From assembly GCA_023245155.1 (NCBI GenBank), contig JAHFKV010000001.1, forward strand, positions 597,395-661,394: a stretch of 64,000 bases of DNA, written 5' to 3'. The notes under the pieces are model-generated. The model was not told where the DNA came from, did no database searches, and worked only from the letters and a program-made list of their open reading frames with translations. Position numbers and translations under genes: made by a program. This document shows positions 1-64,000 of the stretch, piece by piece; positions within the stretch are counted from its first letter, which is position 1, and each line of letters opens with the position of its first letter. This DNA comes from Candidatus Staskawiczbacteria bacterium. GTDB taxonomy: Bacteria > Patescibacteriota > Minisyncoccia > Minisyncoccales > Staskawiczbacteraceae.

Positions 1-390
1 ATTCAAAAGCAGTTCTTGATAATTATATCCGGCTATTTCTTTGGGATACCCATTGGCCAGCTCTTCAATGGCTAAGGCTTCATTGTCCGCCAATGCTTTT
101 AATTGTTCGGGCGTCATGTGCTGCTTATGGCCCAGCTGAATATCACCGGTAATCATTTCGGCGTCATCGTGAACTAACGCCAAAGCCCGCGCTTTATTCC
201 AATCAAATCCGGGTAAGTCATTTTGAAAAGCTTTGAAAAATTCATCTATCAGAAAGAAAACCCTGAGGCTGTGGTGCCAAAGCGTAGAACGATAATAAAA
301 CACATCAAACATTGAATATCTTTTGATGCTTCTTAGCTTCTCTTCACGGCTCTTGGGGAAATCTTTAAGTAGTTCTTGATGGTTTAACAT
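1..390 (-). CDS. HD-domain phosphohydrolase, YfbR-like 5'-deoxynucleotidase type (partial; C-terminus beyond window start)
   Basis: Not in the ORF track because it runs off the edge. Manual reverse translation from ATG at 390 (alternative ATG at 312) gives MLNHQELLKDFPKSREEKLRSIKRYSMFDVFYYRSTLWHHSLRV...LALVHDDAEMITGDIQLGHKQ. This shows the H...HD..E..GD metal-site pattern. Confidence 0.55.
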   Translation of the reverse strand, partial: MLNHQELLKDFPKSREEKLRSIKRYSMFDVFYYRSTLWHHSLRVFFLIDEFFKAFQNDLPGFDWNKARALALVHDDAEMITGDIQLGHKQHMTPEQLKALADNEALAIEELANGYPKEIAGYNYQELLLN

Positions 391-1018
391 GTTTGATATT
401 AAAAACCAGAAAACAAATAATACCTCCAGCAAGGATTCCCACCAGATTCAGCAAAAAGATTGTAATGGCTCTGAGTGCCAAATCATCTGCCGGGTTAAAT
501 AATCCGATTCCAACCGCCACCAATGGCGGCATCAGTGAAACGGCAATACCAATGCCAGTCATAGCTGCGCCAACTTTAGAGCGCACCAATCCATATGCAC
601 CAATGAAGCCGGAAATAACCGCGATGAGTACATCAAAAAAGAGATTTGGAAAAAATGAAATGAGAACACCCTCGGCTGCGCCAAAATAACTTTTAACAAA
701 CAGCGAAAACAAACCACCAACCAATATGGCAAGTGCAATGGAAATAATGAGCATAAAAGAAGCGCGCATAAGTAATTTTATGTCACCGGTGACTATTCCC
801 AAACTCAACGACAAAATCGGATAAGCCAGCGGTGCCACAATCATGCTAGCAATCAAAACCGGAATGCTATCGGTCAAAATTCCACAGGCCGCAAGAATAA
901 TGGCTCCGATAACTAAAAGATAAAAATCCCGGTCTGGCCAGGTATTATGCAAAAGTTCGGCAATCGCTTTTTGCTTATCTTCTGTTGAGTACGGTTTTGA
1001 TGTGAAAAATAGTGACAT
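365..1018 (-). CDS. multi-pass membrane protein, DUF389-like
   Basis: 217-aa ORF with several hydrophobic helices. LLVIGAIILAACGILTDSIPVLIASMIVAPLAYPIL resembles the DUF389 core (recognised from memory). Confidence 0.45.
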   Translation of the reverse strand: MSLFFTSKPYSTEDKQKAIAELLHNTWPDRDFYLLVIGAIILAACGILTDSIPVLIASMIVAPLAYPILSLSLGIVTGDIKLLMRASFMLIISIALAILVGGLFSLFVKSYFGAAEGVLISFFPNLFFDVLIAVISGFIGAYGLVRSKVGAAMTGIGIAVSLMPPLVAVGIGLFNPADDLALRAITIFLLNLVGILAGGIICFLVFNIKHVKPSRTT

Positions 1019-1055
1019 GATTTTTATTTTTAATTATTTTTTATACTATACTGAT

Positions 1056-1955
1056 TTAGGTCTGGATTAAAGCAGCAATAAAAGAAGCTCCAACATCGAA
1101 CAAGACATACCGGTTTGAAGCCTTCTTTAATTCTTCTTCTAATTGCTCTGGAGTATATCGCAAGGATTCAAATAATAAAACCTTATCTCCGACGCAAACC
1201 CCCAGTTCTTTTAATTTTGGAGTGACGTGGAAAATTGATGACCATACTTCTATTTTGTCATTTGTTTCTCTCTTGGCGACATCTTTATCTGGGTCAAGTC
1301 CAAGTAGCCTTATTTTATCATCAGCGAGAATTAAAGCATCTTGAGCATATGCCTTTTGCAGTTCCGCCATATCCACTCTATTTCTCATTTGAGAATTTAC
1401 AAAAACATATCCACCGTTGCCTGCAATACGTTTTAGTAAATCCAGGGCAACCTGTGGGTAATAGTTTGAAAAAGTAAGACCCATGTTTACAAATCTAGGA
1501 ATAGTTGGTTCACCAAGAATTTCTGCGACTTCTTCAAATGCAGATTGGATGGGATGTACAGAAACGCCTTGGTCGCTGGCATGCTTACTAGCAAGCTCAA
1601 GATAATGTTGACTAATATCTACTGGAATGTACGTAAATATTTTTCCTTGTTTTTTTAGTTCATCAAAAAAGAATTGTTCTTTGTGCTCAGTTCCAGGACC
1701 GAGATCAACATACTCAAAATTCTCAGGCAGCAAGCTTGTCACTTTTTGGGCGATTGATTTTAGATATTCCCGCTCAGGCTTAGTGACAAGATTAAAATAT
1801 AGGGTACTCTCTGCTTGCAAAGATTCATACTCTTGCACACTGGATGATATGTAGAGAAGTAATGAGTCTGAATAATCCCACACATGTGGCTTAATAGGCT
1901 GGATAGAACTAAAAGCTCGCTTTTTAAACCACTCGGCATTATATTTGTTTTCCAT
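1056..1955 (-). CDS. SAM-dependent methyltransferase, EgtD-like (Methyltransf_33-type)
   Basis: 299 aa. YVDLGPGTEHKE...YIPVDISQHYLE and NMGLTFSNY resemble the layout of histidine N-alpha-methyltransferases. Confidence 0.45.
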   Translation of the reverse strand: MENKYNAEWFKKRAFSSIQPIKPHVWDYSDSLLLYISSSVQEYESLQAESTLYFNLVTKPEREYLKSIAQKVTSLLPENFEYVDLGPGTEHKEQFFFDELKKQGKIFTYIPVDISQHYLELASKHASDQGVSVHPIQSAFEEVAEILGEPTIPRFVNMGLTFSNYYPQVALDLLKRIAGNGGYVFVNSQMRNRVDMAELQKAYAQDALILADDKIRLLGLDPDKDVAKRETNDKIEVWSSIFHVTPKLKELGVCVGDKVLLFESLRYTPEQLEEELKKASNRYVLFDVGASFIAALIQT

Positions 1956-2031
1956 ATAGATTAAAATCTTATTTCAAAAATCCATTTTTTGGCGTATTCA
2001 GTGTTCATATATTCTCATTTAAAAATTATTT

Positions 2032-2511
2032 TCAAATTATCTTGAGCTCCTTAAACCATTCATACCACACCGGTTCGAGCCCCGGAGAGCTTTCCCATTC
2101 ACCTTCTTTAATTTCACCACGAAGATACCGCTCGGTTTTTACCGCAAGCGCCAATAAATCATCCTTTGTATAAAAGCCCACTTGCTTGGTTTCATCTTCA
2201 GCAGCCTTTATGGTTCCATCTGCTTGGGCTTGATATATTTTCCAGTAGTGCCAAGTGCCACCTTCACGCCGGCAAGGATTTTCTTTCCTCCCTTCAACCA
2301 ACAGCCGAAGATCTTGCGCCTTCAAACCAACTTCTTCTTGAAGTTCATCGGTTGCTGCTTGTTCAAATGAACCATGGTCATCTACATGGCCGGCAGGCAA
2401 GGCAAATCCAAGCGGAAATCTTTTCCTCTCAATAAGTAACAGATTGGCGCCTTTCCAAACCAGGATTCCAACACTTGTGTGGTCACACTTCTGAGACATG
2501 AAGATTACCAT
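2032..2511 (-). CDS. NUDIX hydrolase
   Basis: Nudix-box-like GHVDDHGSFEQAATDELQEEVGL with the core ELxEExGL intact. Overlaps the upstream gene end, so the true start may be the internal MSQKC. Confidence 0.75.
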   Translation of the reverse strand: MVIFMSQKCDHTSVGILVWKGANLLLIERKRFPLGFALPAGHVDDHGSFEQAATDELQEEVGLKAQDLRLLVEGRKENPCRREGGTWHYWKIYQAQADGTIKAAEDETKQVGFYTKDDLLALAVKTERYLRGEIKEGEWESSPGLEPVWYEWFKELKII

Positions 2512-2950
2512 TAAGAATTATTGGTTTCATTCCCATAATTTCCTGTTTATATGAAAGTTGTGAAGACACTTGATGTAATATGTAAATTTTCTTTTTCAGG
2601 TAAAAGGCCACTCCTATTTCTATTAAAGTATTGCCGCCAATATATCCTGCCACACCACGCTTATCATGATTAACCACTAAAATAGCATCACACCAGTCAA
2701 TCTTTTCATAATGATTTTTAATGGCTTCCCCTTTTAAGTCCCAAATTTTATGGCCTGCTTCAAAGGCATCAATTCCCCCATGTTCTTCAATGTATTGGCC
2801 AAAATAGGTTTTTTTACCTCCTCCGAATTCTTTAGGAGCTTCCAAGGCCAGCCTGGGTATTTTTACTTGGTGCCCATGCTTCTCTAGTTCAGCTCGGGTT
2901 AATTCTATCTCTGAATAAAAAGCAGTGCTGCCACAAATAGTTATTTTCAT
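2483..2950 (-). CDS. nucleoside 2-deoxyribosyltransferase / Rcl-like protein
   Basis: 155 aa. AILVVNHDKRGVAGYIGGNTLIEIGVAFYLKKKIYIL matches the conserved Glu-containing G..xE.G.A motif of the NDT fold. Confidence 0.5.
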   Translation of the reverse strand: MKITICGSTAFYSEIELTRAELEKHGHQVKIPRLALEAPKEFGGGKKTYFGQYIEEHGGIDAFEAGHKIWDLKGEAIKNHYEKIDWCDAILVVNHDKRGVAGYIGGNTLIEIGVAFYLKKKIYILHQVSSQLSYKQEIMGMKPIILNGNLHVSEV

Positions 2951-2954
2951 AGTT

Positions 2955-3368
2955 TTATATCAACCTCAAGAAATCTTCGGGAGTTTTATAATATTCATTG
3001 AAAATGTAATACAGTGTTTCTGGTTTTTCGGGCTCGCCAATCAGAATTAATTTCTTCTTAAGCCCGAAAGCAATACCAGCTTCCATATGCGAAGAATTAC
3101 CGCCCGGCAATAAAAAAACTATCGTTTTAGCACCTTGCAAGGCTTCTAGATCTTTTTTGAAATGATTTTCATGCACTGGATCATTCAAAAAATCAGGATG
3201 AGATTCAAGCCGTTTCATTTGTTCTTCTGGTGATAAATGCGGAACTTCGGGGTGGGCCGGTTTTTCCGAGAAATCATAACAGGTAAAACCTTTTGCCCGA
3301 ATAGCCCGGACTAATCTTTGCACATTTTCCCTATTCCGATATTTTCCAATAACCATATAGTCTGCCAT
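2955..3368 (-). CDS. nucleoside 2-deoxyribosyltransferase / Rcl-like protein (second paralog)
   Basis: 137 aa. TIVFLLPGGNSSHMEAGIAFGLKKKLILIG shows the same NDT-type motif. Gap of 4 nt to the next gene. Confidence 0.5.
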   Translation of the reverse strand: MADYMVIGKYRNRENVQRLVRAIRAKGFTCYDFSEKPAHPEVPHLSPEEQMKRLESHPDFLNDPVHENHFKKDLEALQGAKTIVFLLPGGNSSHMEAGIAFGLKKKLILIGEPEKPETLYYIFNEYYKTPEDFLRLI

Positions 3369-3381
3369 GCGAAGTTTATGT

Positions 3382-3924
3382 TTAAAATTTCATATTATAC
3401 CAATTCAAGCCATACTCCTTCTGGATTAAAATCCGTTCGCCCTCGTTTGAAGTCCGGTTATTTTCCAAACCCAGTAATTTCATTCCTTCTTTCAAGTGTT
3501 CTTCGCTTTTGCCCTCAATCTCTAAATACGCTGGCATGCCCGGATATTGGTCAATGTCAAAATGCCAATCCCCAAAACTGAATGATACCCTGTCTTTTTC
3601 TTGATGACCATATTTTTCCAATCCCAATTCTGTAAATAAGGCAGCTACCTCTTTGGGCTCCTCAACAAGAAAGCTAATTTCCCTCCGCACCTTACCGATT
3701 CCCATAGTTTTTGGATCTCCCTTCCATGTCACCTCATGCTTGCCTTCTTTGTCAGACCGTATTCTCAAAAACCAATTAGCACTTCCCTCTTTCTCTCCCT
3801 TGGTTTGATACCAGTCAACAAAAAGCCTCGTTTCCTGTATTTTTACAGCTCCTAAACCAATCAATTTTTCAATAATCTTATTTTTATCAATATCCAATAC
3901 CTTTGTCTCAATTTCGTAGGGCAT
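3382..3924 (-). CDS. CYTH-domain protein (triphosphate tunnel metalloenzyme / class IV adenylyl cyclase-like)
   Basis: 180 aa starting MPYEIETKV (ExExK signature), with YLEIEG near the C-terminus. Confidence 0.7.
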   Translation of the reverse strand: MPYEIETKVLDIDKNKIIEKLIGLGAVKIQETRLFVDWYQTKGEKEGSANWFLRIRSDKEGKHEVTWKGDPKTMGIGKVRREISFLVEEPKEVAALFTELGLEKYGHQEKDRVSFSFGDWHFDIDQYPGMPAYLEIEGKSEEHLKEGMKLLGLENNRTSNEGERILIQKEYGLNWYNMKF

Positions 3925-4568
3925 TAGATTTCAGTTTTCCTTAATTCTTCGATCAAGTTATTTACTTTCTCATTATTAACGTCTTCTGGTTTCAAATCGG
4001 TTTTACCGAAAATTACTTTTTCTATGTTTTCAAGAGATTGCACAAGTGAATCAAACTTTGCTCCAGCAATTGAGTGTTTCTTACCTGCATATCTTTTTTG
4101 ACCTTCTATAATCCGGTCATTCATAGAAAGTACACCATAAGGACCTACCCGCATATCAACATAGTTACAAACCTTATATTCCATCACATTGTCTTGGTCA
4201 TTTTCAGTAGCATGCGAAAATCCAATACGCTCAATACAGTGCAGAGCAGCTACCGGCAAACCAGCTTCTTTGGCAATAGTAATCGTTGCAGCATGTTCGT
4301 CTGGCCCATATTTTTCAAGAAATTCATTCTTTACTCCCTGCCAATATTCTAAACCTTCTGGCTGCAGAAATTCTGGGAAGATGGAAAGATCAGACTTGAT
4401 AATATTTCCCATATCGTGAAATAAGCAAGCTAACAGCACAGAATCTTTATCGATAGGATCTTTAAACTGATTCACAATCACTTTTGCTACCCCCGCTACC
4501 CGCAATTGGTGTAGCTGGAGTGTAGGCATAATTTTGTAGTGGTTATAAATTTCTTGGACGGTTTTCAT
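3924..4568 (-). CDS. HD-domain phosphohydrolase
   Basis: 214 aa with LHQLRVAG...LFHDMGNI (H...HD motif). Its stop overlaps the CYTH start by 1 nt. Confidence 0.7.
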   Translation of the reverse strand: MKTVQEIYNHYKIMPTLQLHQLRVAGVAKVIVNQFKDPIDKDSVLLACLFHDMGNIIKSDLSIFPEFLQPEGLEYWQGVKNEFLEKYGPDEHAATITIAKEAGLPVAALHCIERIGFSHATENDQDNVMEYKVCNYVDMRVGPYGVLSMNDRIIEGQKRYAGKKHSIAGAKFDSLVQSLENIEKVIFGKTDLKPEDVNNEKVNNLIEELRKTEI

Positions 4569-4652
4569 AATCCTAGAGCTTCATAAAATCATTGAGATTT
4601 ATAAAGTTAAAATTTTCCATCTTGTTATGCGTCTCAGTCGGGCTCAATAATA

Positions 4653-5627
4653 TTAATTTATCAAAACATCTTCCAATTTTTTACGATTTGATCCGTAAGG
4701 TTGTTTAGTAGCTTTACCTATTCTGTATAATGCTACAGGTACGGGTACTCCGGTAAGCTCTGCAACTTTTAGAGCAGTTGATTTCTCGTCAATAGCAATT
4801 GAAAATGGATGACAACTATAACCTGCACCAGCTATAGCGACCCAAGATCTAAGGAGTCTCCGACCGGCATCCAATAAAGATCCAGGACTCATGTCATTCG
4901 CTGCTAATACGGCAGCTTTTGGTGCCGCGATGAACATTGCGACATCGCGAGTCGAATAGAGTTTTTCTACAAACTTTGACTTCAGTTGTCCACGCCAAAA
5001 CGCAAAGCGCAGTGCCAATGTATCAAGTATATCGAATCTCATTTGAGGACCAGTAAATCCATCTGGGGCGGTAAGGTCTTTTCTATACCAAACATAAAGA
5101 TCGCGAACAAATCGTGGGTTATTCCATGACTTCATACTAGCTTCGGTTACAACTTCTTTCAACAACCTTGGTTCAATAAGAATGTTACCCAACTTTTTTA
5201 ATTCAGCCTCTAGTTCAAGACTTAAAGGTTCTTTAGAGTAGGGATTTCGATTCGTAACCCTTTTACTGATAAATTTTGAAAGAGGGTCAACTTCACTGCC
5301 AGGAGCAGCTTTTTCTATAAGAACTTCGGCGATATATAAATCATCTCCACTCCTTTCAAGCTTGAGATCAACGTCCACTTTGAGACCAAAATTTGATGCT
5401 TCAAGAGCCAATGTTTCAATAAATGCACCCATGGTAAGGTATGCGTCTCTGTCATCGGGGTCTTCAGGTAAATAATCATTGTGGTCATAGTGTATTTCAT
5501 AACTATGTCCACCTGGTAATGGCTTTATTTTCCAGGGCTGGGCATTGTGAGCCGAAGGAGATCTCAGAGCTGCCGTCAATAGCCCTATATGCTCTGGATT
5601 TACTTTGCGTATTAAATCTTTCAGCAT
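4653..5627 (-). CDS. nitroreductase-family FMN oxidoreductase (two-lobed, Acg-like size)
   Basis: 324 aa. The N-terminal LLTAALRSPSAHNAQPW is the nitroreductase signature. Confidence 0.65.
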   Translation of the reverse strand: MLKDLIRKVNPEHIGLLTAALRSPSAHNAQPWKIKPLPGGHSYEIHYDHNDYLPEDPDDRDAYLTMGAFIETLALEASNFGLKVDVDLKLERSGDDLYIAEVLIEKAAPGSEVDPLSKFISKRVTNRNPYSKEPLSLELEAELKKLGNILIEPRLLKEVVTEASMKSWNNPRFVRDLYVWYRKDLTAPDGFTGPQMRFDILDTLALRFAFWRGQLKSKFVEKLYSTRDVAMFIAAPKAAVLAANDMSPGSLLDAGRRLLRSWVAIAGAGYSCHPFSIAIDEKSTALKVAELTGVPVPVALYRIGKATKQPYGSNRKKLEDVLIN

Positions 5628-5638
5628 GTTATTTATTG

Positions 5639-7195
5639 TTACTTTGTTAAGATGTATCTGCGCTTTATACGATCATTCATGTCTTTAAATGGCCCGCTAT
5701 TTGTTTGATGAATTTTTACCTCAATATTTTTTGCTTTCGGATCTTCGGCGATAGATGTTTTAAAATCTCTGCTATTTTTTGCTAATCTTTCCACAATCCT
5801 TTCCGACAATTTTTTTTCGGAAAGCTCCCCCTTTTGATTATCATCTTGAAGTTCGATATGTACAACCGGATGAGGATGACCTTCAACATCTTCGACCAAT
5901 TCCATAGCAAAACCCTTTATAATATCTTTTTCAGATTCAGGAGCATCACCAAATACTGCCTGTTCAACATCTTCGGGATAAATGTTTGCGCCCAAATACG
6001 AGATAGTGCTATCGCTACGTCCACCAATAAAAAGAAATGGTAATTCAGGATGTTTTCCCGCATAAGGAAGTGGAGCTTGAGTTATTGGATCCAGATTAAA
6101 TTTTTTACAAGTATCAATTACATAATCAAAATCAAGTTTACCTCCTACGTCATGAACATTATAGCGAAGACGCGGCGAAAGAGCGCTCGATCTGTTCACT
6201 GTTACTACAAGTTCATCTCTTTCATTCTGCTCAACATAGTAATCCAATGGGTCGTATTGGAAAAGCATTGGCAACCGCCTAGCATCTTTAAATAGCGCTT
6301 GAGCAAGCTCAGGATTTTTAGCCGCCTGTTGACGTATCCAAACACTTAATGGAAATTCACTCGCAACGCCAATATCCAAATCACTGGCTCCATAAGCCGA
6401 ATTTACTGACTGAAAATATTCTAGTAATTTTGATCGTAAAATTTCACTCATGCCTTCTCCACCGACAATACCGATCATTTTGTATTCATGCCACGGAAAA
6501 TTACGTTTTTTTCCAAATTCCAGTAACTCTAATAAAAAAGGTGGGTATCCGGTAATAATATAGGTACGATCCTTGCCAATCATTTCAAAAACACTTAACA
6601 TCTTTTCGGCGTCTGGCCCGGTTGATTTAAGAAGTCCATTCTGCACCAGTGCCATACTAACGTTGGTGCCGGTTGCCCAAGCACCCATCGAAAAACCATT
6701 GATGGTAACAGTATCCGGACCATAAAGAAATGTTGCTAGCCTACTGAGTGTTTTACGCATCTGGATAAGTTCCCGGTGTCCTCTTAGCCAATTATAAGGC
6801 TTACCAGAAGATCCTGAGCTTTCATCAATTTCAGCATCGTGAAACGGTATTTGACCACCAACACAACGCTGGGCGGTTGAATACATATTAATGTAATTTT
6901 TCTTATTGGTTTCAGGTAGATTTTTTATCCGATCTTTCAAACTACCTTTTACGATGTTGATGCCTGCTTTATCAAGAAAGTCGCTATATGCCGGCACCTC
7001 ACGACAAGCTTTTTTAAATTGCAGAGCTGCGCCAATGGGACTCAGTTTTACGCCAATACGACTGCTCCTTCTTGAGACAAGAATTCTGTTAAACATTCTT
7101 TGTGATTTCAGCGAAGTTTCTCTGACAGCGAGAGCAAAGTAAAGAGAGATTCTATCTAGTAAGGATACGCTTAGTTTTATTTTTGATTTCATCAT
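5639..7195 (-). CDS. adenylate-forming enzyme (PaaK / F390-synthetase / CapK-like)
   Basis: ESSGSSGKPYNW is an AMP-binding-type motif. The ORF-track version (to 7306) runs through tRNA-Gln, so I trimmed it to the ATG-ATG at 7195/7192 (MMKSKIKL). Confidence 0.6.
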   Translation of the reverse strand: MMKSKIKLSVSLLDRISLYFALAVRETSLKSQRMFNRILVSRRSSRIGVKLSPIGAALQFKKACREVPAYSDFLDKAGINIVKGSLKDRIKNLPETNKKNYINMYSTAQRCVGGQIPFHDAEIDESSGSSGKPYNWLRGHRELIQMRKTLSRLATFLYGPDTVTINGFSMGAWATGTNVSMALVQNGLLKSTGPDAEKMLSVFEMIGKDRTYIITGYPPFLLELLEFGKKRNFPWHEYKMIGIVGGEGMSEILRSKLLEYFQSVNSAYGASDLDIGVASEFPLSVWIRQQAAKNPELAQALFKDARRLPMLFQYDPLDYYVEQNERDELVVTVNRSSALSPRLRYNVHDVGGKLDFDYVIDTCKKFNLDPITQAPLPYAGKHPELPFLFIGGRSDSTISYLGANIYPEDVEQAVFGDAPESEKDIIKGFAMELVEDVEGHPHPVVHIELQDDNQKGELSEKKLSERIVERLAKNSRDFKTSIAEDPKAKNIEVKIHQTNSGPFKDMNDRIKRRYILTK

Positions 7196-7234
7196 AAATT
7201 CCGCGAACAAGAAAACGGCAAATTTTGTCCACTG

Positions 7235-7305
7235 CTGCGGGACTTGGATTCGAACCAAGATAGTCAGATCCAGAATCTGAAGTCCTACCATTAGACGATC
7301 CCGCA
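7235..7305 (-). tRNA. tRNA-Gln (anticodon CTG)
   Basis: Hand-folded cloverleaf: acceptor TGCGGGA/TCCCGCA, anticodon stem TCAGA/TCTGA, loop TTCTGGA, T-arm CTTGG-TTCGAAT-CCAAG. 71 nt. Confidence 0.85.
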
Positions 7306-7351
7306 ATATTTAATATAATTTTCCCTCCTGTGTCCTATCCCGGAGTAAAAT

Positions 7352-53909: not shown

Positions 53910-54497
53910 ATGACCGAAAAAGAAGTTATTGCAATGTTCAGGGAAGTCGGCGCAATCAAGAAGGGCCACTTTGTCCTCGCATCCGGTAGACACGCCAAAA
54001 CCCGCATTGAAAAAGTCCTGCTCTATCCGTACACCAAAAAAGTGGATCAACTGTGCTGGGAAATCGCCGAGTATTTTTCCAGGGATTACCCATGCATTGT
54101 CATCGCTCCGGCAACCGGTGGGATTATCCTTTCCCACTGCGTCGCTGACCACATGTCTCGCATGGCAAGCCGAACAGTGCTTAGTCTCTATGCGGAAAAG
54201 ACCAAGGGTGAAAATGGTTTTACGATCAACCCTGGTTATCGCGAGTTCATTAAGGGCAAGGACGTGCTTGTCTTAGAAGATATATTAACCACCGGCGGGT
54301 CTGTCAAAAAAGTTATCCGGCAGGTCCGACGATGGGGTGGCAAAGTCATTGGCGTAGGGGCCCTCTGGAACCGCGGAGGTATTACCGCCAAGGACTTGGG
54401 TGATGTGCCCAAACTCTTCAGCCTGGTGAACGTAACGTTAGAGACTTTCACCAGAGGGAAGTGCCAAAAGTGCAAAGCAAACCGCTCTAAAGTCTGA
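53910..54497 (+). CDS. type I phosphoribosyltransferase, orotate PRTase-like (GC-rich cassette G)
   Basis: KGHFVLASGRH...APATGGI...VLVLEDILTTGGS (PRPP-binding loop). 195 aa. SD-like GGAAGGGG lies 5 nt upstream. Confidence 0.65.
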   Translation: MTEKEVIAMFREVGAIKKGHFVLASGRHAKTRIEKVLLYPYTKKVDQLCWEIAEYFSRDYPCIVIAPATGGIILSHCVADHMSRMASRTVLSLYAEKTKGENGFTINPGYREFIKGKDVLVLEDILTTGGSVKKVIRQVRRWGGKVIGVGALWNRGGITAKDLGDVPKLFSLVNVTLETFTRGKCQKCKANRSKV

Positions 54498-58626: not shown

Positions 58627-61600
58627 CTACTTCGCCACCCCGCTACCCTTCACCTTCCCCAACCCTTTGATGGTGAGCGTGGGATTGGTGGTGCCACTGC
58701 TTAGGTTCAGGGTGTACGTGACACTGTGGGTGGTGCCACTGGTATCTTGATTGCCCCACACATCTTGGCAGGCAAAGTAAATGGTTTTGGAACCGTTGCT
58801 TCCCAGGCTGGGCATGGTACAACTGCCGGCAGTGGAACCATCCCCCGTGCAATCAGCTCCGGACATGGCAGCGTAACTGGCATTGGTGGTTGAGGCTTTG
58901 CAGTCTCCGGCTTCGTCCAAGTTAAAGGTAATATTGGGGGTGGCGGTTTTAATGGTACTGGTGGTGGCTGGATTAAATCCTGATGGGACCGGAGGAGTGG
59001 CGTCGGGGGTGTTGATGGCCGGGGTGACTGAATAGGTATCCAGGGCAGTTCCGGAGTTAGTGATTCTGAATGAGTAGGAGTGGCCGGAGGCAGTTGATTG
59101 GAGGATTAATGAGTACTCGTCTTCGGTATAATTTCCGTTGGTGAGTGAAAGGCTAGAAGTGTCAGAACTGGTGTCTTTACCTTGGCCAGCTTGGAAGGTT
59201 CCCACGGCGGTTAGGCGCGTAGTGGTGGCGGCGCCATCAGTAAAATTAGAGGAGTCAGACAGACGGACATTGTTACTGTTGGTGGTAATTTGGGTCCAAC
59301 TGCCCGAATCTTCTTTAAACTCCAGACGGCGGGTGATGCTGCCAGCTCCCGTGCCGGTGTTAGCGGTTTCAATTCTTAAGCGGAAGGTGGTACTGACACC
59401 CACGTTGTAGTTAGTATCTTGGGCGGCCAGAGGGTTGGCAGTGTTGAGACCGGCGGGAACGGTGTTGTCACTGTAGAAGCGGAAGTGCTCTTGGTTGTAG
59501 GTGGGGGTGCCAAAAATCCAACCTGAATTATCGGAAACATTGGTTGAGTTGACCCCGGCGTTCCAGGTGGCGCCTCCGGTAGCGTTGGAATCTTGGATTG
59601 ACATGTAATCGCAGTCAACAGTGCCACTGGCTTTAGAAAGGGTATGCTGGGTTCCGCCCGAAGATGAATTTAAGGTAATGACGTTTCCCGAAGATCCAGA
59701 GCAAGTAAAGGTTCCACTAAAGGTAGTGGTGGTGGAGGCGGGGAAGGTAATAGTTTTGGGAGCGTTGACGGTAAAGTTGCCAAAGGTATTGGCTCCGGTG
59801 AAAATGACGGCTCCCGTACCTGAACCGGTAATAGTCAAAATGTTGTAGGTTTTACCCCCTCCGGCAAAAGTCTTGCTGGTTGAAGATGTGTCAGAGATGG
59901 TGATAGTGGAAGTGTTTTGGTTTAGCGTTAAACCGGTGGTAGTGGCCGTGGTCCAAACAGTTCCCGTACCATTTAACGTCCATGTGCCCGAACCCATGGT
60001 GATGGTGCGGGTGTTAGAGTTGGAGGAGGAAAAATTTGCCACGGTCACGTTTTTATTATTAGCGTTGAGGGTGCCTTGAGTGAGGGTTAACGTGTTGGTT
60101 GCAGTGAGGTTATCTGAAAGAGCATATCCTACCCCAGAACCATTTTCAGTAAGATTGTAAAAAGAAGAACCGCCTGAAGTAAGATCCCCAGTACCTGAAG
60201 CAGAAGTTCTAGTAATGGTAACAGTTCCCGATCTGGCCGTAAAAGTACCACCAGCGTTCGTCCAGTCATTCCCTACTGATATGGCATAATTAGAACCAGA
60301 TTTTACATCCAACGTTCCACTAGATATTAAAAGATTATTGGATATCGTTAGCGCGTCTTGAAGGGTATATGTACCAGCGCCAGCATTGAGATTAATGTTA
60401 TAAAAACTTGAGCTACCACTGGTGATAGTTTGACTGCCAGATCCCAAGAATATAACAGTGCCACTACGAGCGGTGAATGTGCCGGAATTGAAGTAGTTAC
60501 CGGTTACATCAACATTATAGTTTGAACCAGATTTTACATCTAATGTTCCTGCAGTGATAGTGAGGTTATTGTCTGTGTAGAGAGTATTTTGGAGAGTGTA
60601 AGTCCCACCCGAAGCATTGATAGTAAGATTGTAGAAGTGATCTGGAGATAAAGTAATAGTTTGAGAACCAGTGCCAGTTAAAGTAACTGTACCTAATCGG
60701 GCACTAAAGTTTCCAGCGCTAGACCAGTTGCCGCCGACGCTGATGGCATAGTTACTTCCGCTTTTAGTATCTAGTGTGCCAGCGGTGATGGTTAAAGTAT
60801 TGGTTGTGGTTAAGGCATCTTGCAAGGTGTAGGTACCACCACTGCCGTTGATGGTGAGGGCGTAAAGCGAACTGCTGTTGGTGGTAACGGTCTGAGTGCT
60901 CGTGCCAGTAAGGGTTAGAGTTTCCGTGCCTTTGGTATATGTACCAGCGTTGGTGAAGTTACCACCCACACTGACGTTGCCGCCGGGGGCGTAAGTGTTT
61001 GAGGTGGGAATGTATAACGATTTGCCGGCTGCAACGGTGAGGGCGCCTCCCGAAACCGAGTAAATGGCGGAGATATCTGAGTCGGCGTTGTTGTCGGCAG
61101 TATCTAAGTTGGTATTAGTGAGTGAGCCGGAGTTGTCTTGGCGGGTGATGAGGTCGTTTTGGTAGAGGTTGATACTGGTCATATTGGAGCCCGCGGTGAC
61201 GGTGACGGTTACCGCTTTTTCGGTGGCACCATCCAAGTAAAGGGTAAGCACATCACCAGCGGTGACCGTAATACTGCTAATGGTGTACGTACCATTGCTG
61301 GCGGTAGTGGTATTGCCAGCGGCTGCCGCTCCATTAACGGAAACAGATACCGTTCTTCCTGACCCCATGGTAGTGGTTCCTTCATCTGTGTAGACGGTGC
61401 CAGCAATAGAAATAACTGCTGGCGCAGCGGTAAATGTCCAACCGCTACCGGCGGTTGAAGTGGCTTGATTATTGGTGCTGTGGGTACCGGCGTACCAAGT
61501 GGAACTTGGAGTTGCTACCGAGTGTTGAATACTTAAATAATCACGGTCAATGGTTCCACCGCCGGCTTTGACAAGGGCGTGGGTGGAGGTGGAGGCGGAG

Positions 61601-64000
61601 CCAGAACCATCAGAACTGTTAATGGTGATAAGATTCCCAGCTGTTCCCGATACCGTAAAGGTGGTTACGGTTTGCGTGGTGCCGGCAGCAAATAACAGTG
61701 AATGGGCGGCAGAACCGTCGTCCTTAAAATCAGCGAAGGTGTTGGAACCAAGGATTTCATCATTAGCCGTGCTGGCTCCGCGCGAAAACCAGATATTATT
61801 AAACGTCTTCCCACCACCAGAAAAAGTGTTGGCGGTGTTTGAGGTGTTGGTGATTTTAATCGTGGATGTATTTTGATTTAGAGTTAAGCTAGTGGTAGTG
61901 GAGGTATCCCATACAGTGCCTGTACTACTTAACGTCCACGTGCCTGAACCCATGGTAACAGTGCGGACACTGCTATGACTAGAATTAAAGTAAGGGAAAG
62001 AGATATCTTTTCCATTAGCATCAAAAGTGCCGTACTCCACATCTAAACTATTAGAAGATCCACCGATAGTGAGATTATCTTGCAACGTCAAGGTACCTCC
62101 TATCATATCAATAATAATATTGGGAAATGATTTTCCAACTGAGGTAAGAGTAAATGAACTTCTGCCTTCAAAAACCATTGTTCCGCTTGCGCTAAAACTC
62201 ATTCCTGATATAAGCGTAGTAGACCCGAATATATACCTTACAGAACTAATAGTGAAGGTTGGAGTATTGGTCGCTCCTGTCCAATTGATATTTTTTGCAA
62301 GGCGAGGCATATCGGCGGTAATATTGCGAGAAGCGGCATCAATGGAGTTGGCATCAAATGCCGCATCATCTTGGGGAAGTGGTACGCGTCCACCAATGCC
62401 ACCACTAGTAGAACCCCAGTGAGTTGAATCAGACCAGTTACCCGTGCTAGTTCCTGCTAGGGACGCCACCCAATAATTAGTTACGGCGGTGGTAAAAGTG
62501 ATACCCGAATTCCCTCCACAGTCACCGGAATTCCCGGTGGCGGCACTGATATTCCAGCCGTAGCTTCCGGCTCCGGTGATGTCTATGAAATCAGCATTTT
62601 GAATTAAATTAGTTATGCCATTGGCAGTGATGGTACGAGCCGTTCCCAGAGTATCAGTTTTAACTAACAAGCGATTAGTAGTACTATTGCCGGAAAGGGT
62701 TAAACTTGAAGAAACTGTTTGATTGGCGCTAAGCGAAAGTGCATCAGTTTTTACTGCGGTTCCCGTTCTATTAAAGTTAGTAAATGTGTTAGCGCCCGTA
62801 ACCGTGGCAGTACCAGAGCCCGTTAAATCAACTTCATTATATGTGAGTCCGCCGCCAATAAAAGTAGTGGTGGCTCCGCTAAGGGTAATTATTGATGAAT
62901 TAGCATTAAAAGTAAGGTTTGTTGTTGTGCCGGTATTCCAAGCGTTACCGGAGCCGACCGATAAGGTTATAGAAGACGAACCAAGAGTAAGGGTCCTAGT
63001 ATTGGTATTAGTTGAATCCATAGACCCAAGGTTCAGTGTTTGTCCATTGGTATCAAGAGAGCCCTTAGTTAAACTAACTGTGTTATTAGCTAATGTTCCC
63101 GTTAATTTCCATGAACCACCAGTACCATTAAAGTTGACGTTACCGGCCGTTTTGCCATTGTAATTTACGTTTTGCTGGGTGGCAGATGTGGAAATAAAAG
63201 CAATCTGAGACGTCACTGAGCTTACCAACGTATAAGTCAAACTACCAAAAATCAAGGCATTATTACTTGCCCCAGCCGTACCATCTCCGATGCTTAATGT
63301 TAAAACATTGTGAGTTAAGGTATTGGTATAGCCTGTCATATTCAAGCTTCTGATGGTAATGGCAGCCGAAAGAGTTGAATCACTGGCGCCCGTACCCACA
63401 CCATCAAAAAAAACGTCGTCAGAACTCGTAGGCACCGATGCATTATCTTGAGTATTCGATGCTGAACCCCAATTAGTGTTACTGGTAGCATTCCAATTGA
63501 CCGATGAACCGCCACCCACCCAATACCTGGAAGCATTGTGTAACTGCAATCCATCTTGGATGTACGAGTGATTGCCAGAGATAATAAACTCGTACCACTG
63601 GTTTGGGTCTTTGATTTTTTGAATGGAAGCAACGGTAATGGGCTGAACGCTATCAGTGTAAATCGTGTCACCAACGTTTACCTCAAACGCGTGGCGGACG
63701 TTATGATTATCCCAAACCGATTGGTTTTTCCATAATTTATACGTGCCGTTGATTAAGTAAAAATTGTATGGGTCTTGATAGTGGTAGGTGGCGTCGCTGA
63801 CGAGATCTATTCTTTCCACGCTATTGACCACATCTTTACCCGAATCAAAATCATGGGCGCTAATTTGGTCGCCAACTTTTAAGTCAGAAATATTTTTGTA
63901 GCCGGTGGGAGTGAGAATTTGAGATACAGAATCAGCGCTAGCGAAGGATGGCAAGGCAAAAAAGGTTGCCAAAATACATATGGAAAAAATTAAAAAGAAT
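58627..64000 (-). CDS. giant secreted Thr/Ser/Gly/Asn-rich beta-helix-type surface protein with an N-terminal Hint (intein-like) domain; N-terminus beyond window end
   Basis: The frame stays open to 63999 (FFLIFSICILATFFALPSFASA is a signal-peptide core). At least 1790 aa, with three ~190-aa modules and 77-aa tandem repeats. Confidence 0.8.
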   Translation of the reverse strand, partial: FFLIFSICILATFFALPSFASADSVSQILTPTGYKNISDLKVGDQISAHDFDSGKDVVNSVERIDLVSDATYHYQDPYNFYLINGTYKLWKNQSVWDNHNVRHAFEVNVGDTIYTDSVQPITVASIQKIKDPNQWYEFIISGNHSYIQDGLQLHNASRYWVGGGSSVNWNATSNTNWGSASNTQDNASVPTSSDDVFFDGVGTGASDSTLSAAITIRSLNMTGYTNTLTHNVLTLSIGDGTAGASNNALIFGSLTYTLVSSVTSQIAFISTSATQQNVNYNGKTAGNVNFNGTGGSWKLTGTLANNTVSLTKGSLDTNGQTLNLGSMDSTNTNTRTLTLGSSSITLSVGSGNAWNTGTTTNLTFNANSSIITLSGATTTFIGGGLTYNEVDLTGSGTATVTGANTFTNFNRTGTAVKTDALSLSANQTVSSSLTLSGNSTTNRLLVKTDTLGTARTITANGITNLIQNADFIDITGAGSYGWNISAATGNSGDCGGNSGITFTTAVTNYWVASLAGTSTGNWSDSTHWGSTSGGIGGRVPLPQDDAAFDANSIDAASRNITADMPRLAKNINWTGATNTPTFTISSVRYIFGSTTLISGMSFSASGTMVFEGRSSFTLTSVGKSFPNIIIDMIGGTLTLQDNLTIGGSSNSLDVEYGTFDANGKDISFPYFNSSHSSVRTVTMGSGTWTLSSTGTVWDTSTTTSLTLNQNTSTIKITNTSNTANTFSGGGKTFNNIWFSRGASTANDEILGSNTFADFKDDGSAAHSLLFAAGTTQTVTTFTVSGTAGNLITINSSDGSGSASTSTHALVKAGGGTIDRDYLSIQHSVATPSSTWYAGTHSTNNQATSTAGSGWTFTAAPAVISIAGTVYTDEGTTTMGSGRTVSVSVNGAAAAGNTTTASNGTYTISSITVTAGDVLTLYLDGATEKAVTVTVTAGSNMTSINLYQNDLITRQDNSGSLTNTNLDTADNNADSDISAIYSVSGGALTVAAGKSLYIPTSNTYAPGGNVSVGGNFTNAGTYTKGTETLTLTGTSTQTVTTNSSSLYALTINGSGGTYTLQDALTTTNTLTITAGTLDTKSGSNYAISVGGNWSSAGNFSARLGTVTLTGTGSQTITLSPDHFYNLTINASGGTYTLQNTLYTDNNLTITAGTLDVKSGSNYNVDVTGNYFNSGTFTARSGTVIFLGSGSQTITSGSSSFYNINLNAGAGTYTLQDALTISNNLLISSGTLDVKSGSNYAISVGNDWTNAGGTFTARSGTVTITRTSASGTGDLTSGGSSFYNLTENGSGVGYALSDNLTATNTLTLTQGTLNANNKNVTVANFSSSNSNTRTITMGSGTWTLNGTGTVWTTATTTGLTLNQNTSTITISDTSSTSKTFAGGGKTYNILTITGSGTGAVIFTGANTFGNFTVNAPKTITFPASTTTTFSGTFTCSGSSGNVITLNSSSGGTQHTLSKASGTVDCDYMSIQDSNATGGATWNAGVNSTNVSDNSGWIFGTPTYNQEHFRFYSDNTVPAGLNTANPLAAQDTNYNVGVSTTFRLRIETANTGTGAGSITRRLEFKEDSGSWTQITTNSNNVRLSDSSNFTDGAATTTRLTAVGTFQAGQGKDTSSDTSSLSLTNGNYTEDEYSLILQSTASGHSYSFRITNSGTALDTYSVTPAINTPDATPPVPSGFNPATTSTIKTATPNITFNLDEAGDCKASTTNASYAAMSGADCTGDGSTAGSCTMPSLGSNGSKTIYFACQDVWGNQDTSGTTHSVTYTLNLSSGTTNPTLTIKGLGKVKGSGVAK
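60070..60864 (-). repeat. in-frame tandem repeat, about 231 nt (77 aa) x about 3.4
   Basis: Units starting Y(A/N)LTIN.SGGTYTLQ...LTITAGTLD(T/V)KSGSNY...FTARSGTV at aa 1037, 1114, 1191 and 1272 of the listed ORF. Confidence 0.75.
63535..63924 (-). other. Hint / bacterial intein-like (BIL) domain
   Basis: Starts SQILTPTGYKNISDLKVGDQI (intein block A with a Ser nucleophile). Ends QWYEFIISGNHSYIQDGLQLHN-AS (blocks F/G, terminal His-Asn). Confidence 0.6.

Follow-up and report, generated by a model that had tools for sequence, protein, structure and literature searches.

The five-gene run

We focus here on five neighbouring genes near the start of a 64,000-nucleotide stretch of DNA from a Candidatus Staskawiczbacteria bacterium (contig JAHFKV010000001.1, positions 597,395 to 661,394; the whole of this stretch is called the window). 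Five consecutive open reading frames (ORFs) occupy positions 2032-4568 of its minus strand, at the coordinates given in the initial annotation, and encode, in the direction of transcription, an HD-domain protein (HD214), a CYTH-domain protein (CYTH180), two proteins resembling nucleoside deoxyribosyltransferases (NDTs; NDTa and NDTb) and a Nudix protein (Nudix159) (Table 1). As had been proposed, all five belong to families of nucleotide-metabolising hydrolases. Their homologues come from Paceibacterota, Minisyncoccia, Kaiserbacteria and Moranbacteria, and the window is core chromosome of a bacterium of the Patescibacteria, or candidate phyla radiation (CPR): RF1-FtsE-FtsX genes lie beside the locus, tRNAs are present, and ribosomal-protein operons are apparent, judged by ORF size and order rather than by profiles.

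Table 1. Features at the five-gene run and elsewhere in the window (positions are those of the window; (d)NMP, (deoxy)nucleoside monophosphate)
Feature	Position	Strand	Description
HD214	3924..4568	-	214 aa; HD-domain phosphohydrolase, distantly YfbR-like; predicted (d)NMP 5'-nucleotidase or other nucleotide phosphohydrolase
CYTH180	3382..3924	-	180 aa; predicted triphosphate tunnel metalloenzyme, phosphohydrolase type
NDTa	2955..3368	-	137 aa; NDT/DNPH1/MilB superfamily; predicted (d)NMP N-glycosidase
NDTb	2483..2950	-	155 aa; second, very conserved NDT-superfamily clade; predicted (d)NMP N-glycosidase, Nudix159 partner
Nudix159	2032..2499	-	MutT-like Nudix pyrophosphatase; ORF open to 2511 (159 aa)
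S-adenosylmethionine (SAM) methyltransferase (Methyltransf_33, EgtD/EasF-like)	1056..1955	-	Pfam PF10017 58.4 bits; 76 nt downstream of the Nudix gene
DUF389 membrane protein	365..1018	-	Pfam PF04087 96.6 bits; between the methyltransferase and YfbR-like genes
YfbR-like HD 5'-deoxynucleotidase	1..390	-	N-terminal 130 residues of 262 aa; cut by the window edge
Intergenic stretch upstream of HD214	4569..4676	-	sigma-70-like match TTGGAA, 18 nt, TATTAT at 4676 to 4647
Acg/Rv3131-family oxidoreductase	4653..5627	-	directly upstream of HD214
555-aa ORF	5639..7306	-	no Pfam match
tRNA-Gln	7234..7305	-
Phosphoribosyltransferase-domain gene	53910..54497	+	PF00156
1781-aa ORF	58627..63972	-	no Pfam match at E <=1e-5

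From HD214 to Nudix159, the junctions are a 1-nt overlap (TAATG), gaps of 13 and 4 nt, and a second overlap whose length depends on where Nudix159 begins. A start at 2511 would give an overlap with NDTb of 29 nt; orthologue alignment and public gene calls favour 2499 (MSQKCDH...), with a protein of 155 aa and an overlap of 17 nt, and this is probably the true start. For HD214, the 214-aa start is backed by the invariant residues Y8 and Y11 and is that of the Logan contig L002, while the public calls on L001 and the 93-kb ENA contig give a protein of 201 aa. The initial annotation had described the run as translationally coupled. Same-strand gaps across the window are equally short (median 11 nt; 57% of at most 15 nt; 20% overlapping), so the tight spacing is ordinary here and uninformative for coupling, and no Shine-Dalgarno motifs are visible ahead of the five genes; the claim of coupling thus finds no backing. 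Co-transcription of the five genes is plausible. Promoter and terminator scans did no better than shuffled sequences, sigma-70-like matches in the region being as frequent as the shuffles predict, and the match upstream of HD214 is a possible, weak candidate for the promoter of the run.

The NDT-like and Nudix proteins

The HD, CYTH and Nudix calls of the initial annotation all pass the Pfam gathering scores. Both NDT-like proteins fall below theirs (NDTa with PF15891, 22.4 bits against 30; NDTb with PF05014, 17.5 bits against 28.8), and here the assignment stands on PHROG, fold and motif evidence. NDTa matches phrog_12607, annotated as a nucleoside deoxyribosyltransferase, over its full length (8e-16), and some JGI annotations give the family the same name. 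Searches of the PDB with the single sequences of NDTa, NDTb or HD214 returned nothing meaningful; the profile of the NDTa family (A1) found MilB (4jem) with an E-value of 0.0056 and BcmB with 0.045. When the AlphaFold2 (AF2) model of NDTa (pLDDT 91.5) was compared with the PDB by Foldseek, the list was led by the NDT 8pqr (E 1e-4), BcmB, 6evs (TM-score 0.65), DNPH1 and MilB. Residues D73 and E96 are invariant among 22 homologues and align with the MilB motif DHDEIK...THVEIGWA, and the catalytic Glu lies in a MilB-like loop, PxxxxxHxExGxA (P-x5-H-x-E-x-G-x-A). On this evidence NDTa holds as a member of the NDT/DNPH1/MilB superfamily.

The evidence for NDTb is of a similar kind. Its family profile (A3) gave a marginal match to 4jen (E 0.33), and its AF2 model has a pLDDT of 85.7. 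BcmB (E 4.6e-5) and the NDT of T. brucei lead the Foldseek matches in the PDB and DNPH1 is matched as well, with the NDT-type matches interleaved with flavodoxin-like folds at low TM-scores (0.43-0.48); in BFVD, viral NDTs come top. The catalytic Glu is kept: the motif GGNTLIEIGVAF contains the near-invariant E111, and GGNT(L/F)xExG recurs across the family. By fold and motif, NDTb thus holds as a member of the NDT superfamily. For NDTc, a related paralogue of 129 aa from other loci, the PF05014 score of 35 bits is a pass. When the NDTa and NDTb profiles were aligned with hhalign, they matched over the catalytic motif only (probability 14.7%, E 0.0018), and the two appear to be distant paralogues at best. 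NDTb has 582 homologues, of which the best 120, its own 100% cluster aside, are 69-81% identical to it, and a library-wide profile search (E <=1e-10) places 682 clusters at 50% identity in the family. An identity of 70-80% over more than 100 clusters indicates housekeeping-like conservation.

Nudix159 passes Pfam NUDIX (PF00293) with 56.5 bits, and its best PDB match is 2yyh, described as an '8-oxo-dGTPase domain'. Its Nudix box reads G-x5-G-x7-D-E-L-x-E-E-V-G-L against the canonical Gx5Ex7REUxEExGU, with the catalytic E-x-x-E-E retained. An NPCRR motif, its Pro 16 residues past the Nudix box, is invariant in Nudix159 and its orthologues. The family also has conserved CDH...SVG and SPGLEPVWYEW motifs, and two conserved Cys lie among the three.

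Two further observations concern NDTa. Homologues 62-66% identical to it occur in Desulfobacterales, Spirochaetales and Thermodesulfobacteriota metagenome-assembled genomes (MAGs; P0024, P0030, P0031, P0040; L006-L012), which suggests either cross-phylum transfer or CPR contigs contaminating the bins. In Moranbacteria-type genomes, NDTa lies directly upstream (downstream in L035) of an ORF of ~780-1190 aa (L024, L028, L031, L034-L036, L040, L042, L045, L048, L049, L058, L060, L063). This recurrent neighbour of ~1000 aa was considered as a functional partner and rejected, as it is isoleucyl-tRNA synthetase by Pfam in 10 of the adjacent neighbours scanned and appears to reflect Moranbacteria synteny with no obvious functional meaning.

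Coupling to nucleoside triphosphate pyrophosphatases

The surroundings of these genes were compared in 160 related loci, 80 from genomes and anchored on NDTa, and 80 from metagenomes and anchored on close NDTb homologues (66-79% identical), together with eight HD214 contexts. Nudix or dUTPase genes within 700 bp were counted with an iterated Nudix profile, and flanks more than 2.5 kb away served as the reference. Such a gene was found near NDTb in 35 of 69 loci (4.18 genes per 10 kb against 0.13 in the distal flanks) and near NDTa in 17 of 78 (1.58 against 0.13). The excess is 12- to 31-fold, a large effect even though many of the loci are related. Orthologues of Nudix159 itself (1e-58 to 1e-75) stand directly beside NDTb in 19 of 80 loci, or 16 of the 60 with enough flank, mostly upstream and sometimes downstream, with NDTc in front in eight. 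The order varies while the association stays: Nudix-NDTb, NDTb-Nudix, NDTc-Nudix-NDTb and NDTc-Nudix-NDTb-NDTa all occur, NDTa is followed by a dUTPase gene in Desulfobacterales (L006, L007), and it is followed by a Nudix gene in gammaproteobacterial MAGs (L052, L054). Maf, CYTH and second NDT-like genes are modestly enriched near NDTa or NDTb, and HD genes are not.

Gene fusions lead to the same partners. Among the best 150 representatives of the NDTb family 20 long members were checked, and 16 of these are fusions to a nucleoside triphosphate (NTP) pyrophosphatase of one of four unrelated folds: NUDIX in seven, NTPase_I-T (YjjX-type ITPase/XTPase) in six, MazG in two and Maf in one. Two of the remaining long proteins have tandem NDT domains and two have no recognised second domain. 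Both P0365 and P0393 join a Nudix159-like domain to an NDTb-like one, and they do so in opposite orders. The convergence of four unrelated pyrophosphatase folds on one NDT-like domain is the strongest argument that this domain acts on their monophosphate product. The NDT-like family is thus genetically coupled to house-cleaning NTP pyrophosphatases, and widely so. No paper on NDT-like genes in CPR or on NDT fusions with house-cleaning NTPases was found in the literature searched, which is not proof of novelty.

What the partners imply for the substrate can be set against the first reading offered in the initial annotation, namely that the locus salvages deoxynucleosides by base exchange. Here NDTa and NDTb would be true NDTs, with deoxynucleosides supplied by the HD and YfbR-like proteins and deoxynucleoside monophosphates (dNMPs) by the Nudix enzyme. 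CPR bacteria generally depend on salvage, two HD 5'-nucleotidase-like genes lie nearby, bona fide NDTs (8pqr, 6evs) are the top Foldseek matches of NDTa, and the PHROG and some of the JGI annotations name that activity. By profile, however, both NDT-like proteins are nearest to MilB and BcmB, and NDTa has the MilB loop. Their conserved partners are NTP pyrophosphatases, which make nucleoside monophosphates (NMPs), rather than nucleotidases, and HD-family genes adjoin NDTa or NDTb in none of the 160 loci. The fold does not decide the matter, as it does not by itself tell transferases from hydrolases (PMC12884076). We therefore regard base exchange as unlikely: the proposal was right in kind, since all five families are nucleotide-metabolising hydrolases, but it presupposed an operon that is not a conserved unit, and with MilB and BcmB nearest by profile and with Nudix, dUTPase, MazG, Maf and YjjX-type ITPase as partners, the evidence favours nucleotide (NMP or dNMP) N-glycosidases acting after NTP pyrophosphatases over base exchange between nucleosides.

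A different pair of substrates would be nicotinamide adenine dinucleotide (NAD) and ADP-ribose. Nudix159 would then split ADP-ribose or NADH as a pyrophosphatase, with the NDT-like proteins serving as AMP nucleosidases or as TIR-like glycohydrolases of NAD(P), so that base and ribose 5-phosphate would be released. The Pro of NPCRR stands at the position of the X-loop proline of ADP-ribose diphosphatases, Nudix159 has weak NCBIfam matches to NudC and NudE, and TIR domains (SARM1, TRR-2) are found among the Foldseek matches of NDTa. A lone proline is a weak marker, however, and the best solved relatives of Nudix159 are MutT- or 8-oxo-dGTPase-like. Moreover, the MazG, Maf and YjjX-type ITPase domains fused to the NDTb family act on NTPs, and the neighbour of NDTa in Desulfobacterales is a dUTPase. 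Breakdown of NAD or ADP-ribose is improbable on this balance.

Conservation of the arrangement

The arrangement as a whole is a different matter from its parts. The full five-gene set occurs in none of the 160 related loci, and exact copies were found on three contigs, all of the same organism; what recurs elsewhere is the pair of NDT-like and Nudix genes alone, with CYTH as an occasional companion. HD214, CYTH180 and NDTa were never found with NDTb in the 80 loci anchored on the latter. In the 80 loci anchored on NDTa, HD214 was never found, and an NDTb-family gene was present in eight, a Nudix159 orthologue in four and a CYTH gene in five. The five-gene run is therefore a lineage-specific assembly and not a conserved unit.

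The HD214 contexts suggest how it came about. Orthologues of HD214 stand in eight different contexts, and a CYTH180 orthologue adjoins in L090 alone. In L175 and L176 the order is RF1-FtsE-FtsX-GNAT-HD214, followed by unrelated genes, while in L062 RF1-FtsE-FtsX is followed by NDTc-Nudix159-NDTb-NDTa. The window thus appears to join an ancestral HD position with the NDT/Nudix block. In L172, the HD214 orthologue lies between two Nudix genes and beside a Ham1/ITPase gene.

Given such variety, the five genes might be functionally unrelated, brought side by side by nothing more than a compact, co-directional genome. Their spacing is typical of the window, the set is unique to the organism, and HD214 and NDTb have orthologues in many unrelated contexts. 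The enrichment of the NDT-like/Nudix pair, backed by fusions, speaks against this, and so does the density of like genes: from HD214 to the second CYTH gene (in L001, beyond the window edge), 10 of 15 genes are of nucleotide-hydrolase type (two HD, two CYTH, two NDT-like and four Nudix), or 11 with His_Phos_1, which is far above random expectation by an estimate that is not genome-wide. Coincidence is excluded for the NDT/Nudix core and not for HD and CYTH; as an account of all five genes it is improbable.

HD214, the YfbR-like gene and CYTH180

HD214 passes the Pfam HD family (PF01966) with 26.3 bits against a gathering score of 22, and its metal ligands H20, H51-D52 and D138 are invariant among 25 homologues, as are H92 and E101. 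Its matches to YfbR-like and HD_3 families are weak. Against the YfbR-like PF12917 it reaches 17.0 bits (gathering score 25.9, E 0.005), and against NF003009 it reaches 13.6 (cut-off 122), both below threshold. The family has more than 1000 matches, mainly in Patescibacteria. HD214 shares the H...HD...D metal site with E. coli YfbR, an HD-family 5'-deoxynucleotidase, but the sequences place it in a distinct, CPR-rich family of HD phosphohydrolases (~215 aa) that is only weakly YfbR-like. The gene at the very start of the window is of another sort. It had been described as a YfbR-like HD nucleotidase, and the sequence agrees: the fragment in the window matches an NCBIfam 5'-deoxynucleotidase model (3.4e-4), and the full 262-aa protein, taken from L001, passes PF12917 with 55.2 bits. 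The genes of the methyltransferase and the DUF389 protein stand between this gene and the five-gene run.

CYTH180 passes Pfam CYTH (PF01928) with 39.5 bits against 23.2 and falls just under the cut-off of TIGR00318 cyaB (55.2 against 57.95). Class IV adenylate cyclases are recognised by HFxxxxExExK, a small residue in place of the first Arg of xRxR, and ExA on strand 8 (PMC8233210). In CYTH180 the N-terminal ExExK is E4-I-E6-T-K8, preceded by three residues only and hence by no HF; both xRxR arginines are present in F-L-R-I-R; and L-E-I-E retains the second Glu of ExE. An identity as CyaB is ruled out by these motif rules. With ExExK but no HF, both arginines and ExE, CYTH180 is predicted to be a phosphohydrolase of the triphosphate tunnel metalloenzyme (TTM) or thiamine triphosphatase (ThTPase) type, not a cyclase; among the subfamilies that the initial annotation had left to be told apart, the TTM/ThTPase motifs fit and the CyaB signature fails. 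The best PDB match is SaTTM (7ns8), and ExExK, RxR and ExE are shared with SaTTM and other bacterial TTMs. CYTH180 differs in having Phe where ThTPases have a substrate-stacking Trp or Tyr and SaTTM has Ala. The second CYTH paralogue (L001:11697-12245) has the same Phe. A Phe at the Trp/Tyr position hints that the substrate of both paralogues may carry an aromatic moiety.

The identity of CYTH180 bears directly on the second reading of the initial annotation, in which the locus is a conflict (anti-phage) module. A nucleotide signal, cyclic or of another kind, would come from the CYTH protein, and its sensing or degradation would fall to the Nudix, HD and NDT/SLOG-like proteins. Nucleotide-centric conflict systems with members of these superfamilies have indeed been described, CYTH180 is just below the cyaB cut-off, and PDC-S07, a PADLOC candidate, is matched weakly by six Nudix neighbours. 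CYTH180 has, however, kept two residues that are replaced in class IV cyclases, the Arg and the second Glu. PADLOC matches for HD, CYTH and Nudix were marginal (dGTPase, Cas3b, BrxH and PDC-S07; E 0.003-0.07, 11-15 bits) and those for NDTa and NDTb were nil, and a scan of the neighbours of 84 homologues matched only the Nudix-like candidate and HNH. Sensor-effector, nuclease, pore and Sir2/TIR effector genes are absent from the locus and from related loci; the chromosomal context is housekeeping and syntenic, with RF1-FtsE-FtsX shared with relatives; and NDTb is 70-80% identical across many genomes. Largely refuted by these scans, a defence or conflict system was rejected and is barely credible here.

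A proposed house-cleaning pathway and its counterparts

The reading that we prefer is that enzymes of nucleotide house-cleaning and salvage have been gathered here in a lineage-specific cluster with an NDTa-NDTb-Nudix core, in which a Nudix hydrolase would be followed by an N-glycosidase; we give it a probability of about 0.55. In a first step, Nudix159 would hydrolyse a (d)NTP, probably a non-canonical or surplus one, or an NDP-X, to the monophosphate. The Glu of an NDT-like protein would then attack C1' of this (d)NMP, forming a covalent Glu-sugar intermediate and expelling the base. Base and (deoxy)ribose 5-phosphate would be the products, so that removal would be irreversible while both could re-enter metabolism, the base perhaps through recapture by a phosphoribosyltransferase. 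The two NDT-like paralogues would probably differ in base or sugar specificity. HD214 and CYTH180 would be plausible further members of the guild, not demonstrably coupled to its core.

Several points weigh against this. Nudix159 has an Asp in place of the Nudix-box Arg (REUxEE), which nearly all of its orthologues keep. By sequence alignment alone, NDTb is without an obvious counterpart of the Asp and Tyr of the catalytic triad: no conserved acidic residue aligns with the acid/base Asp (D80 of DNPH1), the place being taken by H80 in close homologues and by W or H in distant ones, and on strand 1 NDTb has T4 and NDTa a near-invariant Y4 (the triad Tyr is Y24 in DNPH1). The chemistry of NDTb may therefore differ from that of the triad enzymes. 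The Poisson probabilities for the enrichment near NDTb (5e-47) and NDTa (2e-13) are overstated, as related loci were treated as independent. Some fusions could be artefacts of gene calling, which is unlikely for 16 representatives of separate 50%-identity clusters. The five-gene order is confined to contigs of this organism, and with the HD family near NDTa or NDTb in 0 of 160 loci and CYTH in 11 of 160, the proximity of HD214 and CYTH180 to the core may mean nothing more than that the genome is very compact. Lastly, the substrates, the order of the reactions and the choice of hydrolase over transferase chemistry are inferred.

The proposed pathway has counterparts in known systems. One is DNPH1 (Rcl), a human sanitiser of the nucleotide pool with a Y/D/E triad (Y24/D80/E104) (PMC10603095). 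Its fold (Foldseek matches 8rpt and 9i6e) and catalytic-Glu motif are shared, D73 of NDTa aligns with D80, and the proposed role, destruction of the NMP of an unwanted nucleotide, is the same. An N-terminal xCGS strand-loop is presumably also common to DNPH1 and NDTb. Identity is only ~12-18%, however, the phosphate-binding residues Ser98 and Ser128' are not demonstrably conserved, NDTb is without a clear triad Asp/Tyr, and NDTa and NDTb are bacterial and genetically coupled to Nudix, MazG, Maf or ITPase. The CMP and hydroxymethyl-CMP N-glycosidases MilB and BcmB are the nearest solved relatives by profile, at marginal E-values; BcmB is the top Foldseek match of NDTb and the loop around the catalytic Glu is that of NDTa. 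They belong to antibiotic or antimetabolite clusters, whereas NDTa and NDTb accompany house-cleaning pyrophosphatases in core genomes.

A similar architecture is known from Z-genome phages. The phage enzyme DmtZ is an NDT-family dAMP N-hydrolase whose gene is adjacent or fused to that of the dNTP pyrophosphatase DutZ; it serves dZTP synthesis and dATP exclusion, and it also moves deoxyribose 5-phosphate to the Z base (PMC12884076). The same arrangement, an NDT-family protein beside or fused to an NTP pyrophosphatase, is seen for NDTb with Nudix, MazG, Maf or ITPase and for NDTa with dUTPase or Nudix, with the difference that the present genes are chromosomal and widespread in CPR and that the partner is Nudix rather than Dut-like. 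The NDTs proper (Lactobacillus NDT/PDT, Chroococcidiopsis NDT) share the fold and covalent-Glu motif and include the top Foldseek matches of NDTa; they act on nucleosides and exchange bases, whereas the proteins of the window fall under the Pfam gathering score and have partners that point to nucleotides.

A bolder extension of the preferred reading, which we put forward tentatively and hold to be the weaker proposition, is that NDTb, probably with NDTa and NDTc, represents a large uncharacterised clade (~680 clusters at 50% identity) dedicated to the second step of house-cleaning, either cleaving the (d)NMP made by its partner (Nudix, MazG, Maf, YjjX-type ITPase or dUTPase) or swapping an aberrant base for a normal one as DmtZ does. 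A DmtZ-like swap would then be a form of 'nucleotide repair' for CPR bacteria that depend on salvage. Patescibacteria are thought to live on scavenged nucleotides, and modified or damaged bases would for this reason reach them continually. An NTP pyrophosphatase paired with an NDT-like N-glycosidase would be the bacterial counterpart of both the DNPH1 logic and phage DutZ-DmtZ, and two families of 'hypothetical proteins' would gain a concrete, testable function. The locus also carries a caution, namely that compact CPR gene runs should not be taken as operons or defence systems.

Neighbouring genes and chromosome context

Beyond the window edge (L001:6984-12245) lie the full YfbR-like HD gene (262 aa), a gene for a TIG/DUF5666 protein, three consecutive Nudix genes, His_Phos_1, a stand-alone B3_4 domain protein and the second CYTH gene. 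This wider locus fits a house-cleaning guild.

Within the window, the five genes are flanked by others of less obvious connection. The SAM methyltransferase is a doubtful member of the unit; a homologue of this EgtD/EasF-like Methyltransf_33 protein is absent from all 160 related loci. The DUF389 protein is a neighbour and not a demonstrated part of the unit. On the other side, directly upstream of HD214, is a flavin mononucleotide (FMN)-binding oxidoreductase of the Acg/Rv3131 family (NF047509, 136.6 bits against a cut-off of 199), an unusual cargo for a tiny CPR genome. The 555-aa ORF that comes next has weak NCBIfam matches of the PaaK/acyl-CoA-ligase type. Its 5' end overlaps the tRNA-Gln gene on the same strand, so its real start must lie further downstream (perhaps MMKSK...).

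With these flanks in view, the locus could be imagined as a pathway for a modified base or antimetabolite in the manner of BcmB and MilB, in which an NMP N-glycosidase would release the base and Methyltransf_33 would methylate it. MilB and BcmB, nearest by profile, do act in such pathways, and a SAM methyltransferase, a PaaK-like adenylating enzyme and an FMN oxidoreductase surround the cluster. Yet none of these flanking genes is found with NDTa or NDTb in the 160 related loci, and the partners that do recur are house-cleaning pyrophosphatases. There is no hydroxymethylase or kinase, and the genome is apparently very small (one NCBI contig with these genes measures 661,750 bp). Biosynthesis of this kind is highly improbable.

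Further features of the window are recorded here. The GC content of positions 1-7000 is 0.36-0.42, one to two standard deviations under the window mean of 0.432 +/- 0.033, and the gene content downstream of FtsX varies among relatives (L062, L175); this part of the chromosome seems to be variable. The phosphoribosyltransferase-domain gene is among the few plus-strand genes. Toward the far end, the 1781-aa ORF, probably a giant CPR surface protein, is followed by genes for TPR-containing (648 aa) and CarboxypepD_reg-containing (565 aa) proteins. GC skew is negative over 1-56 kb and positive from ~56-58 kb, with a cumulative minimum near 56 kb, a switch that may come from a replication origin or terminus, or just from the composition of the giant ORF.

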